A stretch of DNA of 64,000 nucleotides, from contig OZ242011.1 of assembly GCA_965204755.1 (NCBI GenBank), forward strand, positions 2,164,975-2,228,974. Reading direction: 5' to 3'. A program made the translations under genes and the position numbers. Shown piece by piece: positions 4,428 to 37,388 of this stretch. Positions within the stretch are counted from its first letter, which is position 1. Every line of letters starts with the position of its first letter. The notes beneath the pieces were generated by a model, which was given only the letters and a program-made list of their open reading frames with translations, was not told the origin of the DNA and ran no database searches. Origin of the DNA: Candidatus Marinacidobacterium sp. (GTDB lineage: Bacteria; Acidobacteriota; Vicinamibacteria; Marinacidobacterales; Marinacidobacteraceae).

Positions 4428-6556
4428 TCACTCCCGGCGGATCTCCGCGCTCCAGGTCTCCCCCTCGCCGCTTCGGTATCGGCCGGTGCGCACGCGGGCG
4501 ATCCCGTAGTCCGGCAGCGGGACCGTCGCCAGGCAGGCGCGCCCCCCGCCGGCGAGTTCGAACAGGACGCCCCACCGGAAGAAGTCGAAGTCCAGGTTCT
4601 CGAAACGGTGCGGCGCGCGCTCCGCCGGGAGGACCCCCGGCGCTTCGGGATAGACATGCAGGAAGAAACGCCCCTCGCGCAGCGACTCTTCCCGGCAGGA
4701 GGCCCGCCGATAGAACAGCATCGGCCCCTTCGCGGCGGAAACGGAACCGCGGTCGAAGTACACCTCGAAGTCCGCCTCCGCGTCCGGCTCCTTCGTTCGC
4801 AGGAACTCGTATGCCTCCCGGTAGCGATGCGAAGGCGGCGCGTATCCCCGGTCCACGGCGAAGACCGCGCCGTCGGCGAACTCCGCCAGCGGACGGAGAC
4901 CGGGCGTGGCGAACAACACCGCCGGGGGCCCGGCCCGGTAACGGGGCCGCAGGAAGTCCGTGCTCCACACCAGCCGGGCGCCCTCGGGTACTCCTTCCAG
5001 GAAGGCGGCGAGCCGTTCCTGCGGGAGATCGTCTCCCGGCGCCTCTCGACCGACCCAAACCCCGCGGATCGCGCGAAGGTCCGGCCCCCCGCCGAGATGG
5101 GCCAGGACCGGCGTCCACAAGTTGGTGTAGACGCGGCGGGACTCCCCGTAAGAGTCGGCCCGGGCGAACCGCAAGGTCTCCGAACTCGCCCAGGGCTCGC
5201 CGAGGTAGCCGTTGGTGAAGAGGACCTCCGCGGAGTTGGCCCGCGCGACCGCCCGCCGCTGGAGACCGACCTGCCCGACCGCCCACGCCGAGAGGAGCGC
5301 CGCCGCCGCGACGGCGCCGGCCCGCGCGAAGAGTCTCCTGCCGCTCCCGGCTTCGAGGAGCGGGTCGAGCGCCGTAACCAGAGCGAGGACGAGCGGCAAT
5401 CTGGCGGGAAACAGGTGCCTGGGTTCGACGCCGTCCTCGCTGTGACCGAGCATCAACGCCGCGAAATAGAGACCGATGAACGCGAGCGCGAAGCCGCCGA
5501 AGAGCAGAACCCGCCGCGCCGGTTTCGTCGGGGACGCGAGGCCGACGCCCGGAGCGGAGCCCCCCCCCCCCCCCCCCCCCCCAATTCTCCGAGGCCGAGG
5601 GCTCGGCGGACGGTTCCCGTCCGGGGCGAACGCAGGAGCGCCGCCAACGGAAGCAGGGCGCCGAGGGCGAGCAGGGCGCCGGAACTGCCGTCGAATCGCG
5701 CCCAGGCGAGGACCGCGCTCCCGATGTCGCTCAAGATCTCGGCGGCGGCGTAGTCCGTAGGGGGAGGACGCCCGGCCCAACTGCCGCTGACGAAGTAGTT
5801 CCTCGCAGACCAGGCGAGCATCGGCAGACCGGCGATCGCGGTGTAGGCCGCCGCGTTCCGGAAGTTCTCCCGGCCCCGCGCCCCCCGGCGCGTCAGGAGA
5901 AGCGCGCCGGCGAGGAGCAACAGGACCGCGCCGACGAACCGGGTCGAAAACGCCAAACCGGCGAACACCGCGGACCACGCCAGGCAAGCGCGCTTCCCCT
6001 CCTCGAGGAAGCCGCCCAGCAGGATCAGGGCGAGGAGCGTGAACAGTACGAAGACCGGCTCCGTGACCCCGCGCCAGGCCCACTCGGCGAACGGAAGGGA
6101 CAGCGCCGCCGCGGCCGGTGTCCACAGGCGGAGGAACCTCGACCGGAGATGACGCGCCGCATACCGGCCGACGACGAAGACGGTGAGCGCGAAGAAGGCG
6201 GCCCCCACCAGGTGGATCCCGGAGAAGAGATCCAGTCCGCCGAGGCGCGCCGCAGAAAGGAGGAGCGGATAGAACGGAGGCCCGGCATAGGTCGGGGCTC
6301 TTCGCGAAGGCCAATGCGTGAAGCCTTCGCCGTCCAGCAGGTTGTCGGTGACGCGGAGGTAGTTGATCGAGTGGATGTCCACCGCCGGCCCGTAGGTGGC
6401 GCCCCTCGCCAGCACCAGCGCGAAGGCGAGCGCGGCCAAGGCGACGACGAACGCGCCGTACCGACTCGACACAAACCGGTTCGGGCGAAGCGGGGACGCT
6501 CTCCCGCCTTCGACGCCCGGCCCTCTCCGCGGCGCCCTCGATCCGCGCAAACCCAC
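4428..6556 (-). pseudogene. ArnT/PMT-like (GT39/GT83-type) polytopic membrane glycosyltransferase, with the frame broken at a G23 homopolymer
   Basis: Track ORF 5453..6556 encodes the N-terminal multi-TM part up to ...GELGGGGGGG. Track ORF 4428..6314, in another frame, continues from GGGGGGGSAPG... with further TM helices and a soluble C-terminal domain. The two frames meet exactly at the homopolymer. A tract of 24 or 21 G would give one ~708-aa ORF. Confidence 0.6.
5560..5582 (-). repeat. Homopolymer: 23 consecutive C on the + strand (G23 on the coding strand)
   Basis: Counted directly: c at 5560, then 20 c in 5561-5580, then cc at 5581-5582. Confidence 0.95.
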
Positions 6557-25544: not shown

Positions 25545-25661
25545 TACGATGCGGCAGGTCCCCACCGCCTGACCGGTTTGGATTTTTGCCGGTGATCGCC
25601 GTTCCTGCAGTGAGGTTTTCTTCCTACTTGGTCTCCAAGGACGAGGTTGGCGGGGGGACTC
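25545..25661 (+). repeat. Structured ~110-nt element, copy 2 (65 nt upstream of purQ)
   Basis: Same blocks as copy 1: 28/30, 20/20 and 25/25 identical. The differences fall in the hairpin loops and in one stem that changes on both sides. Confidence 0.85.
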
Positions 25662-25725
25662 CTTCGCGCTTCGCCGGCCGGCGCCGCTCTCGCCGGGCGC
25701 CGCGCCGCCGGCTCGCCGGCAACCG

Positions 25726-26436
25726 ATGAAGCCGCGCCGGATCGCGGTCCCGGTGTTCCCGGGCACCAACTGCGAGGAGGATGTGCTCCACGCGCTGCGG
25801 ACCGTGACGCCCCACCGGGCGGAACTCGTCTGGCACCGGGAGGGCTCGCTCGCCGGGTTCGACGCCGCGGTCGTGCCCGGCGGTTTCGCCCACGGCGACT
25901 ACCTGCGCGCCGGCGGGCTGGCCCGGTTCTCCCCGGTGACGGCCGCGCTCTCGGAGATGGCCGGGGCCGGGAGGCCGGTGCTGGGCATCTGCAACGGGTT
26001 CCAGATCCTCCAGGAGGCGGGGCTCCTGCCGGGAGCGATGCTGAAGAACCGCTCGCTCACCTATGTCTGCCGGGAGGTGTTCGTCCGGGTCGAGACGAGG
26101 GAGACCCCGCTGACCGCCGCCCTCGAAGTCGGCGAAGTGCTGCGGCTGCCGATCGGGCACGCCGAAGGGAACTTCCACCTGGACGACCGCGGGATCGCCG
26201 AACTCGAGGCCGAAGGACAAGTGGTGTTCCGCTACTGCCGGTCGGACGGGGCGCCCGACGAAGCGGCGGCGGAAGTGAATCCCAACGGCTCCCGGAACGC
26301 CGTCGCCGGCGTCCGGAACCGGGCCGGGAATGTGGCGGCGCTGATGCCCCACCCGGACCGGGCCTACGAAGCGGCGCTCGGCGGCGAGGACGGCGTCCGG
26401 GTGTTCGCCGGCCTGACCCGGTGGCTGGAGTCCTGA
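25726..26436 (+). CDS. purQ: Phosphoribosylformylglycinamidine synthase, glutamine amidotransferase subunit
   Basis: [12 protein letters not shown], nucleophile elbow [15 protein letters not shown]. Confidence 0.95.
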
Positions 26437-28802
26437 TGGCGCCGGCGGCGGGCCGAGCCGGGCCACCGGCGGAAGGATCTGCCGGGCCACCGGCGAAAGG
26501 TCCAGCCGGGCCACCGGCGAACGGCGCTGTCGAGCGGCCCGTCGGGCCGGGCCAGGGGTTGGCCGATGCGCTCGCGGCGGGTCTCACCGAGTCCGATTTC
26601 CGGGAGATCGAGGCCCGCCTCGGGCGCGCGCCGAACGCCGCCGAACTCGGCATGTTCTCCGCCATGTGGTCGGAGCACTGCTCCTACCGGTCCTCCCGAA
26701 GGCATTTGGCGCGCTTCCCCACCGAGTCGCCCCGGGTCCTCGAAGGGCCGGGCGAGAACGCCGGCGCCGTCGAGATCGGCGACGGGCTGGCCGCGGTGTT
26801 CAAGGTGGAGTCGCACAACCATCCCACCTTCATCGAGCCGTACCAGGGCGCGGCCACCGGCGTCGGCGGCATCCTGCGGGACATCTTCACCATGGGCGCC
26901 CGCCCGGTGGCGCTGATGAACTCGCTGCGCTTCGGCCCGCTCGCCGACCGGAACAACCGCCGGCTGTTCGCCGGGGCGGTCGCCGGCATCGCCAACTACG
27001 GGAACAGCATGGGCATCCCCACCGTGGGAGGGGAAGTGGGGTTCGAGGACTGCTACTCGCTGAACCCGCTGGTGAACGCCTTCGCGCTCGGTCTCGCGCC
27101 GGCGGACCGGTTGTTCCGCGCCCGGGCGGAGTCGCCGGGGCATCCGGTGTACTGCGTCGGCGCGAAGACCGGCCGCGACGGCATCCAGGGCGCGGCGATG
27201 GCTTCCGCGGCGTTCGACGACGAAGCGGAGGCCAAGCGCCCCACGGTGCAGGTCGGCGACCCGTTCCTGGAGAAACTCCTGTTGGAGGCCTGCCTCGAAC
27301 TCATGCGGGGCGACGCGCTGGTCGCCGTCCAGGACATGGGCGCCGCCGGGCTGACCTGTTCCACCGCCGAAGTCGCCGCGCGGGGCGGGTGCGGCGTCCG
27401 GGTGGACCTCGACCGGGCGCCGCAGCGCGAAGCGGGGATGTCCGCCTACGAAATCCTCCTCTCGGAGTCGCAGGAGCGGATGCTGTTGGTGGTGCGGCGG
27501 GGGCGGGAGGGCGAGGTGGAGCGGGTCTTCGCCAAGTGGGACCTGGACGCGGCGGCGCTCGGCGAGATCACCGACGACGGACTGCTCCGGGTGACCCACC
27601 GGGGCCAGCCGGCGGCGCTCGCGCCCTGCCGGGCGCTGACCGAGGACGCTCCGCTGGAAGACCGGCCGATGGCCGCGCCGTCTTCGTGGCCCCCGGCGGA
27701 GGTGACCGCCGCCGACCTCGACGAGCCGCGCGACTGGAACGAGGCGGCCCTGCGGCTGGCGGCTTCCCCCGGGCTCGCCAGCCGGCGGTGGGTGTACGAG
27801 CAGTACGACCACATGGTGCGGAGCGACACCGTGGCCCGCCCCGGCGCGGACGCCGGCGTGATCCGCATCAAGGGCTCGCGGCTGGGTGTAGCCATGTCGC
27901 TCGACGGCAACGGCCGCTACGCCGGCGCCGACCCCCGCCGGGGCGGGGCGCTGGCGGTGTCCGAGGCCTGCCGCAACCTGGCGGCGGTGGGGGCGGAACC
28001 CGTGGGGGCGACCAACTGCCTCAACTTCGGCAACCCGGAGAAGCCGGAGGTGATGTGGCAGTTCTCCGAGGCCATAGACGGCATGGGCGAGGCGCTGCGG
28101 GCGCTCGGCGCGCCCATCACCGGCGGCAATGTCAGTTTCTACAACGAGACCGACGACGCCGGAATCCTGCCGACCCCGGTCGTGGGCGTGGTGGGGGTGC
28201 TGCCCGATGTCCGGGCGTTGGTGCGCCAGCACTTCCGGGGACCGGGCGACGCGGCGTACCTGGCCGGAGGAGCGTCCGCCGGCGCTTCTTCCGGCGGCGC
28301 GTCGCCGACCGTCGCGCTCGGCGCGAGCGAGTACCTGAAGGTCATCCACGGCCGGACGGACGGTCGCCCCCCGGCCCCGGCGCTCGAGGCGGAGGCGCGC
28401 CTGGGCGCGTTCCTGCGCGCGGCCGCCGCCGCGGGGATCACCCGCTCGGCCAAGGACCTCTCCGAGGGCGGCCTGTTCCAGGCGGCGGTCGAGTCGGTCT
28501 TCGCCCCCGACGGTGCCCGCTGCGGCGCGTCCCTCTCGCTGGAAACCCCCGACCGGATCGAGGGCCCCCTCTTCGGCGAAGCCCCGGCCCGCGCGCTCGT
28601 CACGGCGGGGGTCGAGGACACGGCGGCCCTGGAGTCTCTGGCCGAGGAGCACGGAACCCCGCTGACCCGCCTCGGGACCACCGGGGGCGATGCGCTAAAC
28701 GTCCGGGCGAACGGCGCCGCCGTGATCCATCTGCCCACGCCCGACCTCTGGGACGCCTTCGGCATGGGCCTGGAACGCGAGATGTCGGGGACGGCGCCGT
28801 GA
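26436..28802 (+). CDS. purL: Phosphoribosylformylglycinamidine synthase subunit PurL
   Basis: ATG 26436 shares one nt with the purQ stop (TGATG). [33 protein letters not shown]. The N-terminus carries an AGPPAxGx x3 insertion. Confidence 0.95.
26457..26528 (+). repeat. In-frame 24-nt tandem repeat x3 at the 5' end of purL
   Basis: GCCGGGCCACCGGCGGAAGGATCT / GCCGGGCCACCGGCGAAAGGTCCA / GCCGGGCCACCGGCGAACGGCGCT, encoding [24 protein letters not shown]. Confidence 0.9.
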
Positions 28803-28885: not shown

Positions 28886-30049
28886 ATGGACCCGGCCGTT
28901 GTCCGCACCGAACGTGCGTCGTCTTCCCCGCGTCGTCGCCCATCCTCCGCGCGACTCGATCGGCTGGCGGCTTCGGCGGCGTCAACGGCGCGTTCGACCG
29001 CGGTAGGCGCACTCCCGCCGCGCCGAGTTCATCCCGGTGCGGCAGCCGCGCCGGTCCTGCTTCCCGGAAGGCGGACGCGTCCGTCGGTTCGCCGCTCCGG
29101 CGGCGCCTCGCCTCGCCGCGCGCGGCCGTGGGTGCTGCCCGAGGACTGCCGGGATGCCCTCCCCGAACTTGCGGAGAACAGCGTCGCTCTGGTCTTGACC
29201 GATCCTCCCTACTTCACGGACCGAATGGGCGCGGAATGGGACCTGCGCGCCCTCCGGTCGCGGGTGAAGAACGGGGTCGTCGGCGGCCTGCCGGTCGGTA
29301 TGAAATTCGATCCGAAACAGGGCCGCGACCTCTACGAGTTCCTGCGGCCGATCGCGGAGGAGTGGCGGCGGGTCCTCAAGCCGGGCGGTTTCGCCCTCTG
29401 CTTCTCCCATCCCCGGCTCGCCCACCGCACGACCTCGGCGATAGAGGACGCCGGTTTCGAAATTCGGGACCTGCTCGCCTGGAAGCACGAGGGGCAGGCC
29501 AAGGCGTTCACGCAAGAGCACTTCGTTCGCCGCCGCGACCTCTCCGACCGAGAGAAGGCGCGCATCATCCGCTCGCTCGGCGGCCGCAAGACCCCGCAAC
29601 TCAAGCCGCAGATAGAGATGATCGTCCTGGCGCAGGCGCCGCGCGCAGGGACTTTCGTGGACAACTGGATGGAGTACCGCGCCGGGCTGATCGATGTCTC
29701 CCGCCCGCTCCTCGATCCCGGACGCTTCCCCGGAACCCTGATCCCCTGCCCCAAACCCAAGGAGCGGTTCGGGCACATGACGGCCAAACCCGTCGCCTTG
29801 CTCCGCCACCTCATCCGCATCTTCTCCGCCCCGGGAACGAACTCGGTCGTCCTCGACCCCTTCGCCGGCTCCGGTTCGACCGGAGTGGCCGCCCGCCTGG
29901 AGAAACGCGGCTTCCTCGGCTTCGAGATCGACGCGGCCATGGCGAAGACCGCGACAGAGCGGCTTGCGAAGGAAGCCGACGCGCGTCCACCGCGGCTTCG
30001 GGCTACGAGATCGCGAACTCCGCGGATGAGGAGCCGTAGGCGTCCGTGA
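28886..30049 (+). CDS. Beta-class DNA methyltransferase (N4/N6 methylase domain, DPPY type, probably N6-adenine)
   Basis: Motif IV LVLTDPPYF precedes motif I LDPFAGSGSTGVAA, the circular permutation typical of the beta class. ATG 28886 adds an Arg-rich 80-aa leader, and GTG 29132 is an alternative start. GC is about 63-65%. Confidence 0.8.
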   Translation: MDPAVVRTERASSSPRRRPSSARLDRLAASAASTARSTAVGALPPRRVHPGAAAAPVLLPGRRTRPSVRRSGGASPRRARPWVLPEDCRDALPELAENSVALVLTDPPYFTDRMGAEWDLRALRSRVKNGVVGGLPVGMKFDPKQGRDLYEFLRPIAEEWRRVLKPGGFALCFSHPRLAHRTTSAIEDAGFEIRDLLAWKHEGQAKAFTQEHFVRRRDLSDREKARIIRSLGGRKTPQLKPQIEMIVLAQAPRAGTFVDNWMEYRAGLIDVSRPLLDPGRFPGTLIPCPKPKERFGHMTAKPVALLRHLIRIFSAPGTNSVVLDPFAGSGSTGVAARLEKRGFLGFEIDAAMAKTATERLAKEADARPPRLRATRSRTPRMRSRRRP

Positions 30050-30393
30050 TGTTCCAACTGCCTCCGGCTCCGGAATCCTGCTTGGCGGGAGATGTTGTCG
30101 GCGCGGCGCTTCGTCGCACGGAAGCGATGTGGAAGGCGGCAGGTTTCGGTTTCCGGCCGTACGACCCTCCACAGGCCAAGTACGTCCTCGACACCTTCTT
30201 CACCGAATCCCACGGCGGGCTCGAACTGCTCGACTTCGTCGTCGAGTCCGCGGAAGAGCCGTTCTCGGCGATCCGGATGCGCGTCCGGTACACGGACGAC
30301 GAGGACGGAACCGGTATGACCCGGTGGTTCGTGTGGCGGAAGGCCGACGAGGATTCGAGCGCCTGGGCCTTCCAGGAAGACGAAGGCTGGTGA
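30049..30393 (+). CDS. Hypothetical acidic 114-115-aa protein coupled to the methyltransferase
   Basis: ATG 30049 shares one nt with the methyltransferase stop (TGATG), and GTG 30046 is also possible. Trp/Asp/Glu-rich. No family recognised. It ends 4 nt before purF. Confidence 0.45.
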   Translation: MFQLPPAPESCLAGDVVGAALRRTEAMWKAAGFGFRPYDPPQAKYVLDTFFTESHGGLELLDFVVESAEEPFSAIRMRVRYTDDEDGTGMTRWFVWRKADEDSSAWAFQEDEGW

Positions 30394-31834: not shown

Positions 31835-31884
31835 TCGTCAAATACCCAGCGGGCCACGGAGACAGGTTGAGCGACGGGAACTCG

Positions 31885-32520
31885 TTATGGTTTCCGCCGA
31901 ACACCGTTCGGTCCGATCCATATTCGGTGTCGGCACGGATCTACGATAGGGCCGTCTCCGAATCTCGACTTGATGCGTAGAGCTGCGAAACTACGAATTA
32001 CCGTGGTGGGAAACTGTTCGCGCAAGCGCGCAACGGTCCCCATGATCGTGGCGCCTCGCCCGAGAACGTCGTCGACGACCGTTATTCGTTCGGGCACGGT
32101 GTCGGATATGCCCCTTATCTCGAGGGAGTCGTAGTGTTCTCGATGTGTGGGGCGCTCACCGGGTGCCGAAAAGGCGGACTTAGGCATGGTGTATGTTCTG
32201 CGTATCAACAGAGACACACTGATTCCGAGTCCATGGTTCTTCAACGCTTCCGCGAGGAGGAGGCCGACCCACTTCTGTTGCTCTCCCCGCCAAGGTACGG
32301 AGCCCGGGACTGGGACAAGTGTCGTCTTGGCGCCAAAGAGATCACGCAGTCCCTCATGTTGTGTCAACGCGACAACTTTTTCAGCCACTTGGTTTATGGC
32401 CCAATCGTGGCCGTTCTTCACGGCACTGCGTATCTGCCGTGACTTGCGTGCGATCTCGCTTGTCTCCTTTGACGAGTAGGCGAGAGCCGTGCCACAGACG
32501 ACCTCAGAGAAGAGACTCAT
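31885..32520 (-). CDS. ComF-type phosphoribosyltransferase-fold protein without the N-terminal zinc finger
   Basis: TLVPVPGS and PRPP-binding loop ITVVDDVLGRGATIMG. Start taken at ATG 32520 (GAGGAA 13 nt upstream), overlapping the upstream gene by 17 nt. The track ORF extends to 32700. Low GC (~57%). Confidence 0.7.
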   Translation of the reverse strand: MSLFSEVVCGTALAYSSKETSEIARKSRQIRSAVKNGHDWAINQVAEKVVALTQHEGLRDLFGAKTTLVPVPGSVPWRGEQQKWVGLLLAEALKNHGLGISVSLLIRRTYTMPKSAFSAPGERPTHREHYDSLEIRGISDTVPERITVVDDVLGRGATIMGTVARLREQFPTTVIRSFAALRIKSRFGDGPIVDPCRHRIWIGPNGVRRKP

Positions 32521-33310
32521 CGACGATCGTTCGTTCCTCAACACTCTCGCACCATCTGGAGACATCCTCTTGGCGAAGCGGTTCAGCACCGTACCGTATC
32601 TGGTCTTCAACCCAATCGATACCACTGGAAGCGAGAGGTTCCAGAATGGCGAGAGGGCGCCCCAGATTGATTGCTTCCCAGCCTTGGTGTTTCGTACCAC
32701 TTGTGGGGCTGGCAGCCACGATTACAGTGGCGTCAGAGAGGATCGCCATGGTGCGATTTCGCATCGCGAAATTTCGCCGCTGGACCGAGGAAGACTCCGG
32801 AAACTGGGAGACCACCAAGTGTTCGGTCGCGATGGTGTGCTGCAACGAAGCGTTGGATGCGGGGTAGGCACGGGAGAGCGGTGTTCCAAGGACGGCCACG
32901 GTCTTTCCGTGGAGTTCGATTGCGGTTTTGTGCGCGACGGTATCGATTCCATCGGCGAGGCCGCTGACCACAGAGATGCCGGCTTGGACGAGACACTCCG
33001 CTACGGATCGAGCGAGAGCCAAGTCCTCTGCACCCGCTCGACGTGAGCCGACGATGGAAATGCGTCGACCTTCTTGCAGCAGCGTGGGGTTTCCCGCGAG
33101 GTAGAGCGCCCGTGGCGCGTTTCGACTCTCGAACCGGTTGAGGGGGCCGAGAAAACTCTCGATCGGAGTAGCGCCGTCCGCCCTGTCGTGAACGGCTGCC
33201 CCGAAGAGCGAAGACGGGGGCGCTTCGCGGGGGCGGCTCATCGGTTCGGCCCTCGGTAGGCCGTCCGAAGCAAGCCGGACAGCCCGCTGTCGGGACGAAG
33301 GCGTGCCCAT
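32504..33310 (-). CDS. DprA/Smf-like Rossmann (SLOG superfamily) protein, core domain only
   Basis: ISIVGSRRAG, SGLADGIDTVAHKTAIE, VAVLGTPLSRAYPASN, FAMRNRTMAILSDATVIVAASPTSGTKHQ. An alternative start at ATG 33241 has a better GAGGG site. No SAM-like N-terminal or winged-helix C-terminal extension. Confidence 0.75.
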   Translation of the reverse strand: MGTPSSRQRAVRLASDGLPRAEPMSRPREAPPSSLFGAAVHDRADGATPIESFLGPLNRFESRNAPRALYLAGNPTLLQEGRRISIVGSRRAGAEDLALARSVAECLVQAGISVVSGLADGIDTVAHKTAIELHGKTVAVLGTPLSRAYPASNASLQHTIATEHLVVSQFPESSSVQRRNFAMRNRTMAILSDATVIVAASPTSGTKHQGWEAINLGRPLAILEPLASSGIDWVEDQIRYGAEPLRQEDVSRWCESVEERTIVDESLL

Positions 33311-33346
33311 CGTTGTTCGGGATTCTAGGCGACGAGTGCGACGGGC

Positions 33347-36169
33347 TCAGGCGATCGCGGCCCCGTCGGCGTCCATGCGGCTGATCGGGCCGTAGCCCAG
33401 GCGGGAGAGGCCCGGCTCCAAGCGGTCGGCGTCGCCGACCACCACCAGCGCGCCGCCCTCCGGGGAGAGGTGCTTCGCCGCCGCCTCGGCGACCTGGTCG
33501 CGGGTCACGGCGGCCACCCGGTCGGGGAACTCGCGGATGTCCGACAGCGGGCCGCCGCGGTGGAGGATGCCGCCGATGACCCCTTTCACGCCGCCCAGCG
33601 TCTCGAAGTGCTGGGTGTAGGTGCGGATGAGCGTCTTCTTCGCCTCCTCCACCTCCCGGACGAGGACGCGGCGCCGGCCGGAGGCGATCCGCTCGACTTC
33701 CGCGAGCAGTTCCGGGATGGCGGCGTCCGCCATCTCCAGGTTCACCGACGCGGAGGCGGAGAGGATCGAGCCGTCGGTCAACTGGCGGCTGCCGGCGAAG
33801 GCGCCGTAGGTCGCTCCCATCCGCTCCCGGAGGTTCAGGTTCAGCCGGCTGGAGAAACCCCCTCCCAGGATCTGGAGCGCCAACCGGAGCGCCAGCCGCT
33901 CCGGAATGTCCCGAGGCGGGCCGGCCTTCACCCAGCGCGCGACCGCCTGCGGGCTCTCGGCGGCCATCCGGTGGAGCAGGACCCCCCGGCCGGGCGGCGC
34001 CGGCAGTTCCGGCGCGGGCGGCCGCTCCGGGACTTCGCCCCGCGCCCACTCGCCGAAGAACTCGTCGAAGACCTCCACCACCCGGTCGGTCTCGATGTCG
34101 CCGCAGACGATGAACGCCGGATCGTCCGGGACGAACCGCCGCCGGTGGAACTCGGCCAGGTCGTCCACCCGCACGGCGGCGAGCGAGTCCTCGTCCGACC
34201 GCCAGCCGTACGGGTGCTCGTCGGAGAAGACCGCCCGCCGGGCGATGCGGCCGGCGACCGAGTTCGGGTTGGCCCGCGCCTGTTTCAACGCGTCGAGATG
34301 GAGCGGGATCAACTGGGCCAACTCCTTCTCCGGGAAGGTCGGCCGCCGCAGCAGGTCCACCGCCAGGGCCAGCGTCGGGCGCAGGTGCTCGGTGAGGCAG
34401 GAGAAGGAGACGCTCATCGCCTCGGCCCCGGCCCCGGCGCCGAGGTCCGCGCCCATCCGGTCGAGCGCCGCCTCGAACTCGTGCGCGGTCCGGCTGCCGG
34501 CGCCCCGGCTCATCATGGTCGCCGTGAGGCCGGCGAGACCGGCGAGCCGGCGCGGCTCGTTCACCTTGCCTCCGCGAAACCGGAGCGTGGCTTCGATCAT
34601 CGGCAGGTCCCGGCGTTCGTGGACGACCACCGGGACGCCGGCCGCCGACTCCCGGGACTCCGGCAGCGGCGCGGTGAACCGGCCGGCCGGCCCGCGGCGC
34701 GGCGGGCGGGAACGGTCCGGTTCCGGCGGCAACTCCGGAACGGGCCCGACCGGGGTGACGGTCGGCGCCCGCCAGTCCGCCGGCCCCACCGGGACCGGGA
34801 CTACGGGCGGCGCCCCGGCGGCGTCCGGCTCGCCGTAGAGCAACTCCACCCGGGGCGCGAGCAGGTAGCGGTTCGCGACGCGCGCCAGGTCCGCCTGCTC
34901 CACTTCGCGGTAGCGCACCCAGTGTTCGGAGAGTTTGTCCGGCTCTCCGAGATAAGTGGTGTACCGGGCCAGCAGGTCGGCCTTGGTGGCGAGCCGCTCC
35001 AAGGCGCCCACGAACGACACCTGCGTCTCCGCCTTGACCCGCTCCACTTCCTCCGGGGTCGGCCCTTCGGCGGCGATCCGCGCCAGTTCCTCGTCCATCG
35101 CTTCCCGGACGCGGTCGAGCGGCGTCCCCGGCCGGGCGGTAACCACCACCCCGGTCAGCCCGCCCGACTCCAGCGAGTACTGGAACGCGTTCACGCCCGA
35201 CGCGATGCGGTCCTCATAGACCAGCCGGTGGTAGAGGCGCGAGTTCAGGCCGTCCGAGAGGACATCGGACAGCATGTCGAGCGCCGGCTCGTCCGGGTGG
35301 AAGAACGGAATGGTCGGCCAGCAGCAGTAGAGGCGGGCGTGGGGCACTTCGTCCGGGGCCGTGATGCGCCGCGTCTCGGTGAGTCCGATCGGCGGGAACT
35401 CGGGACGGCCCGGGCGGTCGCCGGGCGGAATGGAACCGAAGTAGCGCGTGGCCTGGGTAAGCGCCGTCCGCTCGCCCAGGTCGCCGGCGATCACGAGGAC
35501 GGCGTTGTTCGGGACATACCACGCGCGGAAGAAGTCGTGGACTTCCTCCAGGGTGGCTTCGGCGAGATGTTCCATGTCGCCGATGACATCCCAAGAATAC
35601 GGATGCCCGGCGGGAAAGAGCGCATGGAAGATGCGCTCCCACGCCGTGCCGTACGGCACATTGTCCATGCGCTGCAGCCGCTCGTTCCGCACGACTTCGC
35701 GTTGGGTGTCGAGCCGCGTCCGGTCGAGGACATCGAGCAGCCAGCCCATCCGGTCCGACTCGGCCCAAAGCGCCAGCCCGAGCGCCTCCTTCGGGACGGT
35801 CTCGTAGTAGTTCGTCCGGTCGTGGCTGGTCGTGCCGTTCACCCCCCCCGCGGACAGGCTGGCCCCGGCTTTCTCCATCAACCGGATGAAGTGCTGGTCG
35901 TTGTTCCGCGAACCTTCGAACATCAGGTGTTCGAAGAGGTGGGCGAACCCGGTGCGCCAGGGCTGTTCGTTCTTCGAGCCCACGTGGTACCAGAGCGCGA
36001 CATGCGCCACCGGCAACCGGCGGTCCTCGTGGAACAGGACGCGGAGGCCGTTGTCGAGCGTGTGGAGACTCGAAGGGACGCTGACTTCCGCCGCCATCTC
36101 GAGCGGCGCGGCGTTTCCCCGGGCCGGGCGGGCCGATCGGGGCGGGGCGGGAAGCGGGGGTTCGGGCAT
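33347..36169 (-). CDS. Pitrilysin-type M16 zinc peptidase (two fused M16 units)
   Basis: HLFEHLMFEGS (HxxEH) and a second inactive-type half. Start at ATG 36169 or ATG 36097. The track ORF start at 36439 is an upstream read-through. Confidence 0.85.
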   Translation of the reverse strand: MPEPPLPAPPRSARPARGNAAPLEMAAEVSVPSSLHTLDNGLRVLFHEDRRLPVAHVALWYHVGSKNEQPWRTGFAHLFEHLMFEGSRNNDQHFIRLMEKAGASLSAGGVNGTTSHDRTNYYETVPKEALGLALWAESDRMGWLLDVLDRTRLDTQREVVRNERLQRMDNVPYGTAWERIFHALFPAGHPYSWDVIGDMEHLAEATLEEVHDFFRAWYVPNNAVLVIAGDLGERTALTQATRYFGSIPPGDRPGRPEFPPIGLTETRRITAPDEVPHARLYCCWPTIPFFHPDEPALDMLSDVLSDGLNSRLYHRLVYEDRIASGVNAFQYSLESGGLTGVVVTARPGTPLDRVREAMDEELARIAAEGPTPEEVERVKAETQVSFVGALERLATKADLLARYTTYLGEPDKLSEHWVRYREVEQADLARVANRYLLAPRVELLYGEPDAAGAPPVVPVPVGPADWRAPTVTPVGPVPELPPEPDRSRPPRRGPAGRFTAPLPESRESAAGVPVVVHERRDLPMIEATLRFRGGKVNEPRRLAGLAGLTATMMSRGAGSRTAHEFEAALDRMGADLGAGAGAEAMSVSFSCLTEHLRPTLALAVDLLRRPTFPEKELAQLIPLHLDALKQARANPNSVAGRIARRAVFSDEHPYGWRSDEDSLAAVRVDDLAEFHRRRFVPDDPAFIVCGDIETDRVVEVFDEFFGEWARGEVPERPPAPELPAPPGRGVLLHRMAAESPQAVARWVKAGPPRDIPERLALRLALQILGGGFSSRLNLNLRERMGATYGAFAGSRQLTDGSILSASASVNLEMADAAIPELLAEVERIASGRRRVLVREVEEAKKTLIRTYTQHFETLGGVKGVIGGILHRGGPLSDIREFPDRVAAVTRDQVAEAAAKHLSPEGGALVVVGDADRLEPGLSRLGYGPISRMDADGAAIA

Positions 36170-37388
36170 GAAGCGCGCCAATATACTGCCCCGTTCCGCC
36201 CGTTCGGCCCCCGATTTCCCGTTGCGAACCACCCCCCGGACGCGGCGTTCGGCCGCCGCTCGCCGCTTCGCCGGCGGGCTCGTTCTCGCGGCTTCCGCCT
36301 CCGGAGCGGCCCCGCCGCCCCAACCCGCCGACCCGTTCACCGCCGACCGGCCGGTCGAGGCGATGGTCGGCAAGCAGGTGGTCTTCGAGACGACCCGCGG
36401 AGACTTCGTCGTCGAGGTCCTGCCGGAGAAGGCGCCCAACCACGCGGCGTTCTTCCTGAAGCAGGCGGAGGAAGGGGCCTACGACGGCACCGCCTTCCAC
36501 CGGGTGATCGCCCGCGGCATCGTCCAGGGCGGGGATCCCCTGTCGAAGGACCCGGAGGCGGCGGACCGCTACGGGACCGGCGGGCTGCTGCGCCTCGCGC
36601 GGGAGCCGAACGACGAACGCCACACCCGGGGCGCGGTGTCCGCGGTGCAGGTCCCCGGTCAGCCGGACAGCGCCGGTTCCCAGTTCTTCGTGGTGATCAC
36701 CGACCAACCCGGGCTCGACGGCGCTTACACCGTGTTCGCCCGGGTGGTGGAAGGCCTGCGCCCGCTCACCGCGATCTCGGAGGTCGAGGCGGACGAGGGC
36801 GGCCGGCCGCTCGAGCGGGTGGAAGTGGTTCGCGCGGTCGTCCGCGACCGGCCGCCGGAAGTCGCCCCGCCGTTCACGGAGGAAAGCGACGCCGAACTCG
36901 CGAACCACCGGGTCGTCCTCGAAACGCCCTTCGGCGAGATCGGGATCGAGTTGCTCCCGGAGACCGCGCCGAACCATGTCCGCAACTTCCTCCGGCTGGC
37001 GGCGCTCGGCGCCTACGACGGTACCGCGTTCCACCGCGTCGTTCCCGGCTTCATGATCCAGACCGGCTGGATGGAGACCCGGGAGCCGCTGCTGCCGGAA
37101 TCGCTCGAAAAACACATCACCAACCTGCAGCCGGAGTTCTCCGACCTGCCGCACGAGCCGGGGACGGTCTCCATGGCGCGGCTAGCCGAACCCGACAGCG
37201 CCATGACCAGTTTCTTCATCGTCACCGCGCGGGCGCCGGCGCTCGACGGCGAATACACGGTCTTCGGGAGGGTGGTCTCCGGCTACGAGGCGGTGGAAGC
37301 GATCGAGGCCCTCCCGGCGGCGGAGGACGAGTCGCCGCTCGAACGGGTCGCGATCCGTCGGGCCCGCACCGAGCCGGTCTCCCGATGA
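36168..37388 (+). CDS. Secreted peptidyl-prolyl cis-trans isomerase with two cyclophilin domains
   Basis: Two copies of the cyclophilin signature (FHRVIARGIVQGGDP...GSQFFV and FHRVVPGFMIQTG...TSFFIV). Arg-rich signal peptide. Start uncertain. Confidence 0.85.
   Translation: MKRANILPRSARSAPDFPLRTTPRTRRSAAARRFAGGLVLAASASGAAPPPQPADPFTADRPVEAMVGKQVVFETTRGDFVVEVLPEKAPNHAAFFLKQAEEGAYDGTAFHRVIARGIVQGGDPLSKDPEAADRYGTGGLLRLAREPNDERHTRGAVSAVQVPGQPDSAGSQFFVVITDQPGLDGAYTVFARVVEGLRPLTAISEVEADEGGRPLERVEVVRAVVRDRPPEVAPPFTEESDAELANHRVVLETPFGEIGIELLPETAPNHVRNFLRLAALGAYDGTAFHRVVPGFMIQTGWMETREPLLPESLEKHITNLQPEFSDLPHEPGTVSMARLAEPDSAMTSFFIVTARAPALDGEYTVFGRVVSGYEAVEAIEALPAAEDESPLERVAIRRARTEPVSR

Follow-up and report, generated by a model that had tools for sequence, protein, structure and literature searches.

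The pair of overlapping genes at positions 31885-33310 of a 64,000-nt stretch of the Candidatus Marinacidobacterium sp. genome (contig OZ242011.1, hereafter the window) belongs, by profile and by fold, to the ShosTA family, and probably constitutes a short-form type IV toxin-antitoxin or abortive-infection module that works as proposed from Escherichia coli. The original prediction, made from the sequence of the window, knew of no named defence system with such a composition. A DprA-like protein encoded together with a phosphoribosyltransferase (PRTase) is, however, precisely what defines ShosTA, and both proteins match the corresponding ShosA and ShosT models in PADLOC. Millman et al. 2022 (bioRxiv 10.1101/2022.05.11.491447) include ShosTA among the phage-defence systems, Rousset et al. 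2022 (PMC9122126) found it in the P2 hotspot, and the E. coli system has been dissected structurally by Pu et al. 2025 (PMC11961720) and Yang et al. 2026 (PMC12961424). The system itself is therefore already named; what is gained is the re-annotation of a "DprA + ComF-like" pair as a ShosTA defence/toxin-antitoxin module in an uncultured Vicinamibacteria-like acidobacterium, the copy in the window being a divergent member with a minimal architecture. The features of the pair are:

32504-33310, minus strand: shosA, gene for the DprA-like predicted antitoxin, 268 amino acids (aa), ATG at 33310 and TGA at 32506-32504
31885-32520, minus strand: shosT, gene for the PRTase predicted toxin, 211 aa, ATG at 32520 and stop codon at 31887-31885
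32504-32520, minus strand: 17-nt overlap of shosA and shosT, the shosA stop lying over the shosT start, read directly
32539-32534, minus strand: GAGGAA upstream of the shosT ATG, read directly

The two overlapping minus-strand open reading frames (ORFs), their 17-nt overlap and the GAGGAA are thus as originally described, and all of the sequence motifs quoted at that time are present in the two proteins. By virtue of the overlap, translation of shosT is probably coupled to that of shosA. An in-frame ATG at 33241 provides an alternative shosA start, resulting in a protein of 245 aa, and is the start chosen by gene callers in the closest relatives. The start assigned to the 211-aa ShosT is right because all eight close homologues, with lengths of 209-217 aa and all opening with MSxFSEV, begin at the same Met. 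A maximal PRTase ORF of 271 aa, initiated at a GTG, was considered and dropped, as the homologues use the later Met and the upstream part crosses the conserved C-terminus of ShosA. There is no second DprA-like ORF in the 64-kb window.

ShosA matches the PADLOC-DB ShosA model PDLC03961 with an E-value of 3.1e-64 and the E. coli-specific model PDLC02997 with 1.5e-19. In Pfam, it matches DNA_processg_A (2e-48) and, more weakly, the SLOG family LDcluster4 (2e-05), and its scores against the NCBIfam dprA equivalogs TIGR00732 (135.5; cut-off 191.15) and NF008007 (107; cut-off 495) are both below the cut-offs. The best sequence match in the PDB is DprA from Streptococcus pneumoniae (SpDprA, 3uqz), and E. 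coli ShosA (9vzo/8zva) is matched with an E-value of 1e-17. The AlphaFold2 (AF2) model of ShosA (pLDDT 89) has a confident DprA Rossmann core, residues 46-258, followed by a short low-confidence C-terminal tail. Residues 1-45 are disordered in the model (pLDDT 51-61), the fold beginning at residue 46, and many relatives are ~226 aa in length and have no such N-terminal extension. Neither a SAM domain nor a winged helix is present in the model. Foldseek ranks S. pneumoniae DprA (3uqz, 3e-18) first, followed by E. coli ShosA (8zva, 1e-14), Helicobacter pylori DprA and then MCP/LOG proteins, and Pfam, AF2 and Foldseek so uphold the earlier description of a core-only DprA of the SLOG superfamily. 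Across the family, the arginines of the GSR (R90) and RNR (R184/R186) motifs vary little or not at all, and these motifs align with the GTR and RRNR of 9vzo; the third E. coli arginine has no confident counterpart. A GWEA motif (G210, E212, A213) is invariant in the short ShosA family and absent from E. coli ShosA and SpDprA.

ShosT matches the general ShosT model PDLC03962 in PADLOC-DB with an E-value of 1.6e-16, over profile positions 62-209 of 237, and does not match the E. coli-specific model PDLC03012. It matches no Pfam family, and the NCBIfam search returned only sub-threshold matches to the APRT/OPRT loop and none to ComF. The AF2 model (pLDDT 95.6) is of one type-I PRTase domain, in which the phosphoribosyl pyrophosphate (PRPP) loop is ITVVDDVLGRGAT with the acidic pair D150/D151. 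The best TM-scores found by Foldseek are to H. pylori ComF (7p0h, TMq 0.51) and to E. coli ShosT (8zvc/8zvd, TMq 0.44-0.45, probability 1.00), and there are also many HGPRT/APRT entries in the Foldseek list. Across the 102 sequences of the ShosT family, K35, P70, R108, D151 and G156 are invariant, R123 varies little if at all, and D150 is retained in 90% or more; the GRGAT part of the PRPP loop is likewise conserved. Only two cysteines are present (C9 and C196), both kept in the eight closest homologues, and the four-Cys zinc finger of ComF is absent; the PRTase fold and this cysteine count agree with the zinc-finger-less ComF-type PRTase proposed before. An exact-sequence look-up found no record of the ShosT in the window. 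As the direct similarity to E. coli ShosT is marginal, the membership of this ShosT rests on the general PADLOC model, the fold and a bridging phage homologue. The latter is from Burkholderia phage PhiBP82.2, whose pair (ShosA, 294 aa; ShosT, 227 aa) matches the PADLOC ShosT and ShosA models with E-values of 4e-42 and 9e-105, respectively, and whose ShosT is matched by the hidden Markov model of the window ShosT family with 2e-11. Judged by these profile matches, the PhiBP82.2 pair bridges the short and E. coli forms. An E. coli pair recovered from the P2-like phage 10W, with shosA preceding shosT, matches the E. coli-specific models PDLC02997 and PDLC03012 and also the general models PDLC03961 (2.4e-85) and PDLC03962 (1.8e-53).

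Several observations weigh against a ShosTA module that functions as in E. coli. Searches of PDB sequences, with the single ShosT or with the 102-sequence profile, find neither ShosT nor ComF, only APRT/OPRT PRPP-loop matches. Alignment of the family profile with E. coli ShosT by hhalign is weak (probability 11%) and limited to the PRPP loop, giving a low-confidence pairing of the VVDDVLGRGAT loop with the E. coli VIDDFCTEG loop and of K114 with K280, and H. pylori ComF superposes on ShosT slightly better than does E. coli ShosT (TMq 0.51 versus 0.45). Deletion of the SAM domain destabilised E. coli ShosA (PMC12961424), so that a ShosA without this domain may work somewhat differently. A literature search found no experiment on any short-form pair, all of the mechanistic work having been undertaken with the 424-aa ShosT and 328-aa ShosA of E. 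coli. The immediate surroundings of the pair are housekeeping genes with no large defence island, a type II methyltransferase gene being the only defence-type neighbour.

The pairing is nevertheless conserved far beyond the window. Eighty genome loci were picked on ShosA alone and a same-strand ORF of the ShosT family was then sought downstream. ShosT directly follows ShosA in 76 of these 80 loci, and the end of ShosA overlaps the start of ShosT in 67 of the 72 intact pairs, with modes of -17 and -11 nt, so that the pairing and overlap, conservation of which the original prediction had proposed as a check, extend across phyla, as does the gene order. ShosT is missing beside ShosA in four loci (L012, L016, L044 and L083) and truncated or frameshifted in two (L014 and L067). 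Among loci picked in this way on ShosA, it is therefore always the toxin that decays, and in no case just the antitoxin; toxin-antitoxin pairs are expected to show this asymmetry. The short ShosT family has 999 clusters at E<1e-10 in a 50%-identity library, the best-scoring 150 being mostly 200-235 aa in length. A word-indexed search found >2000 short ShosA relatives, and 534 are present in the species-representative genome collection, from Acidobacteriota, Rhodobacteraceae, Flavobacteriales, Planctomycetota, Gammaproteobacteria, Eisenbacteria and other taxa. Over 79 loci, the G+C content of the module differs from that of the flanks by as much as 11 points, being lower in high-GC hosts and higher in low-GC Bacteroidota, a compositional pattern that fits frequent horizontal transfer between phyla. 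Two short ShosTA pairs are present at separate sites (L010 and L023) on the 2.9-Mb chromosome of a Vicinamibacteria metagenome-assembled genome (OY729431.1). Roseibium polysiphoniae also has short ShosTA (L004/L027), with the L004 pair adjoining a relaxase and a BrnA antitoxin, and in L015 the pair is on plasmid 2 of a member of the Rhizobiaceae; these settings of L004 and L015 fit carriage by conjugative elements. In some cases, intact ~210-aa ShosT ORFs were not called by the source gene finders, which report a 53-aa fragment or nothing (L005, 6800-7432; L092, 5731-6363; L004, 6665-7300). Short ShosT is thus probably under-annotated in public data and the system under-counted.

The locus is itself variable. 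The surroundings of the pair in the window are:

33347-36439: M16 peptidase gene, on the far side of shosA-shosT from purF
33322-33327, minus strand: TAGAAT, a -10-like hexamer 11 nt before the shosA ATG, read directly
31840-33320, no strand: exchangeable cassette, delimited by the drop in sliding DNA identity versus contig L005
30398-31834: purF, convergent with shosT
30046-30393: 115-aa ORF overlapping the methyltransferase gene, matching no family
29132-30049: type II DNA methyltransferase gene (PADLOC MTase_II, 5e-37)
25647-28802: purL

The order M16 peptidase gene, shosA, shosT and opposite-strand purF recurs in metagenomic contigs and in one Ca. Marinacidobacterium chromosome, and in the window and six syntenic relatives both ORFs are intact with their catalytic motifs kept. 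In L005, the encoded M16 peptidase, PurF, methyltransferase and PurL have 99%, 98%, 99% and 97% aa identity, respectively, with their counterparts in the window, but ShosA has only 59% and ShosT 45%. In L090, the corresponding values are 96% for the M16 peptidase, 88% for ShosA and 90% for ShosT, and in L001, L092 and L094 they are 79-80%, 64-69% and 59-63%, respectively. In L012 (Ca. Marinacidobacterium sp. OZ251549.1), a lone ShosA (5001-5726; 57% identity) is encoded in the same slot ~70 nt from purF, with the toxin gene absent, next to an M16 peptidase with 79% identity. Cassette similarity is therefore uncoupled from the similarity of the host, as measured by the flanks, among the loci compared. 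At the DNA level, sliding identity between the window and L005 is 95-100% up to ~33320 and again from ~31830, and falls to 35-70% between these positions in an almost gapless alignment. With near-identical flanks and a sharply divergent interior, this indicates that a ~1.5-kb cassette has been swapped for a divergent homologous allele by recombination in the conserved flanks, an allelic turnover within a fixed slot. No meaningful direct or inverted repeats were found at the ends of the cassette, and the swap is thus a naturally occurring case in which a defence module changes its allele in one chromosomal slot and no mobile-element scars are left. The gap between purL and purF is a second variable islet. 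In the window and in L005 it holds the gene for a type II N6/N4 DNA methyltransferase and the overlapping 115-aa ORF, in L001 (4394-9624) genes for a helix-turn-helix-methyltransferase, a BglII-like endonuclease and two further methyltransferases, and in L092 (7849-9752) a methyltransferase gene and ORFs of 224 aa and 116 aa. Both sides of purF being variable, purF is flanked on each side by a defence-type variable slot.

The base composition of the pair is also foreign to its site. The G+C content of shosA plus shosT is 59-60%, with 65% and 63%, respectively, at third codon positions (GC3), as compared with 72% (GC3 92%) for the M16 peptidase gene and 67% (GC3 90%) for purF. The dip noted originally is therefore real, and the ~75% then estimated for the flanks is fair for the M16 peptidase gene but not for purF. 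This composition, the cassette swap between near-identical genomes and the defence-type family are consistent with the horizontally acquired defence-type module that was first proposed.

A consensus scan found no full sigma-70 promoter match, and the TAGAAT upstream of shosA, which sits within a conserved 37-nt spacer past the M16 stop codon, is thus a lead only. No Shine-Dalgarno sequence is apparent ahead of the shosA ATG, and the shosA transcript may be near-leaderless. The stop codons of purF and shosT face each other across 50 nt (31835-31884), in which the promoter/terminator scan detected no terminator-like hairpin, and read-through or antisense overlap between these convergent genes is possible.

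The predictions made for the toxicity, antitoxin mode, trigger and defence function of the pair in the window come by analogy from work with E. coli. E. coli ShosT is a PRPP-binding PRTase, in which D331 and D332, the counterparts of D150/D151 in the window, are essential for toxicity, and its effects are a perturbed purine metabolism, DNA damage and filamentation (PMC11961720, PMC12961424). E. coli ShosA is a dimeric DprA-like protein that does not bind ShosT (PMC11961720, PMC12961424) and neutralises the toxin only if it can bind both single-stranded DNA (ssDNA) and RecA (PMC12961424). Its R139, R234 and R261 participate in ssDNA binding, and the counterparts of the GSR and RNR arginines are needed both for this binding and for antitoxin activity (PMC12961424). 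The triggers proposed are phage ssDNA and T7 Gp0.7, the latter in combination with an unstable ShosA (PMC11961720, PMC12961424). In the protein pair in the window, the PRPP and ssDNA motifs are conserved and the SAM and pyrophosphatase domains are absent. By analogy, ShosT would bind PRPP through its DD-containing PRPP loop and move the phosphoribose onto an acceptor, disturbing purine and nucleotide pools and so leading to replication damage and cell death. ShosA, presumably translated first with ShosT coupled to it through the 17-nt overlap, would counter the damage indirectly, not by binding the toxin but by binding ssDNA and through recombination or repair that depends on RecA. Should a phage stop host gene expression or fill the cell with ssDNA, ShosA would be lost or titrated, and the pre-made ShosT would then kill the cell. 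The cassette, with its foreign composition, is exchanged whole through recombination in the conserved M16 peptidase and purF flanks.

Alternatively, and compatible with membership of the ShosTA family, the pair could do nothing for phage defence in this host, being either an addiction cassette of a purely selfish kind or the decaying remains of a module. The loss or frameshift of the toxin gene in L012, L016, L014 and L067 and the position of the module amid housekeeping genes would fit, and the defence role of the short form is argued from analogy with E. coli members. Against this, both ORFs and their catalytic motifs are intact in the window and the six syntenic relatives, and genes under selection by phages typically show such intense replacement of alleles at a fixed site. 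Protection against T7 and lambda is conferred by the E. coli members of the family (PMC9122126, PMC11961720), short pairs occupy the defence hotspots of P2-like phages, and we consider a selfish or decaying cassette unlikely.

Two further possibilities give ShosA a different, for example enzymatic, function. In the first, which is distinctly unlikely, short ShosTA would be a functionally separate subfamily in which the GWEA-containing ShosA acts not through RecA but, for example, through a SLOG pocket that reverses or sequesters the product of ShosT, with the position beside the 3' end of purF, conserved over a long time, perhaps coupling the toxin to purine metabolism. The product of purF is the PRPP-consuming first enzyme of purine synthesis. 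In the second, still more doubtful, the SLOG-fold protein would cleave or process the phosphoribosylated product of the PRTase, or a nucleotide signal, so that the pair would serve in nucleotide modification or signalling, or combine a toxin with an antidote that is an enzyme. The weak LDcluster4 match, the LOG/MCP proteins that are the next structural neighbours after DprA, and the GWEA motif shared by short ShosA proteins and missing from E. coli ShosA and SpDprA could be read in this way. The conserved motifs in ShosA are, however, the ssDNA-binding GSR and RNR motifs of DprA, the closest relatives are DNA-binding DprA proteins, and the LOG motif PGGxGTxxE is absent from the ShosA family, as read directly from the alignment. 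We know of no enzymatic activity for any DprA. Such chemistry has some room, as published work names no acceptor for ShosT, but antitoxin activity in E. coli requires ssDNA and RecA binding (PMC12961424). The original prediction had similarly favoured a SLOG enzyme that processes a nucleotide signal or modifies DNA, whereas the E. coli work has revealed a PRPP-dependent PRTase as the toxin and, as the antitoxin, a protein that binds ssDNA and RecA but not the toxin (PMC11961720, PMC12961424).

Housekeeping competence, in which a truncated DprA would load RecA on incoming ssDNA in concert with a ComFC-type uptake PRTase, is highly improbable despite the DNA_processg_A match, SpDprA and H. pylori ComF as the best PDB match of ShosA and the best TM-score match of the PRTase, and the lone DprA-like gene in the same slot in Ca. 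Marinacidobacterium, as the original prediction had also judged, given dprA scores of 135.5/191 and 107/495, a PRTase with no ComF match in Pfam or NCBIfam and no four-Cys finger, a GC3 that is 25-30 points under that of the neighbours, an allele swapped between genomes with 97-99% identical flanks, the occurrence of the same pair in P2-like phages and a plasmid, and at two sites of a single chromosome, and the better fit of the pair to the ShosA and ShosT models.

A ShosTA module is also the outcome most consistent with comparisons to the individual named systems. Competence DprA (SpDprA, 3UQZ; HpDprA, 4LJK) and ComFC (H. pylori ComF, 7P0H) have the folds of the proteins encoded in the window, and HpDprA is also nearly core-only. 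Unlike competence genes, those in the window are paired, overlapping, compositionally foreign and cassette-exchanged, and encode proteins with sub-cut-off scores and no zinc finger. One candidate among the homologue matches (H14) was an ordinary Salmonella dprA and was discarded. PsyrTA/RqlHI also has a DprA-like antitoxin, and PsyrA is the second-best PADLOC match of the ShosA in the window (1.4e-31), far below the ShosA match; the partner protein has no match to PsyrT in PADLOC-DB and matches only ShosT.

The closest known system is E. coli ShosTA (APEC O1/KTE181; ShosT, 8ZVC/8ZVD; ShosA, 8ZVA/9VZO), located in the P2-like prophage hotspot. As in the window, the DprA-like gene is first and the PRTase gene second on the same strand, the proteins match the same general PADLOC models, the toxin has a PRTase fold with a DD-containing PRPP loop, the antitoxin has a DprA Rossmann core with conserved ssDNA-binding arginines, and the pair is mobile and hotspot-borne. 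Sequence identity is, however, low, with ShosA matched at 1e-17 and ShosT detectable only through profile plus fold, and the gene junction differs, there being a 17-nt overlap in the window and a 1-nt gap in phage 10W. E. coli ShosA has a SAM domain (1-94) where ShosA in the window has a disordered leader, and the 424-aa E. coli ShosT has an N-terminal pyrophosphatase/hydrolase domain (1-164) that the 211-aa ShosT does not have. This pyrophosphatase domain is a feature of the E. coli subtype, and neither the best-scoring members of the family nor the short forms in phages have it. A point mutation in the domain (R56A) lowered the toxicity of E. coli ShosT only marginally (PMC11961720), in keeping with a family whose toxin is the PRTase by itself.

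The short ShosTA pairs of Burkholderia, Ralstonia and Pseudomonas P2-like phages (such as PhiBP82.2, Mana and Riah) resemble the pair in the window in having a ShosT of ~208-227 aa with no pyrophosphatase domain, and share with it the gene order and the PADLOC models matched. They differ in adjoining an integrase and attP, whereas the pair in the window is chromosomal and amid housekeeping genes, and the one phage ShosA scanned, that of PhiBP82.2, still matches the N-terminal part of the profile (positions 19-293), whereas ShosA in the window matches only from position 94. The form without SAM and pyrophosphatase domains is thus common, whereas the mechanistic work concerns the long E. coli form and, with the short form so widespread, neither the pyrophosphatase coupling nor the contacts through SAM that have been proposed in E. 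coli can be needed throughout the ShosTA family.

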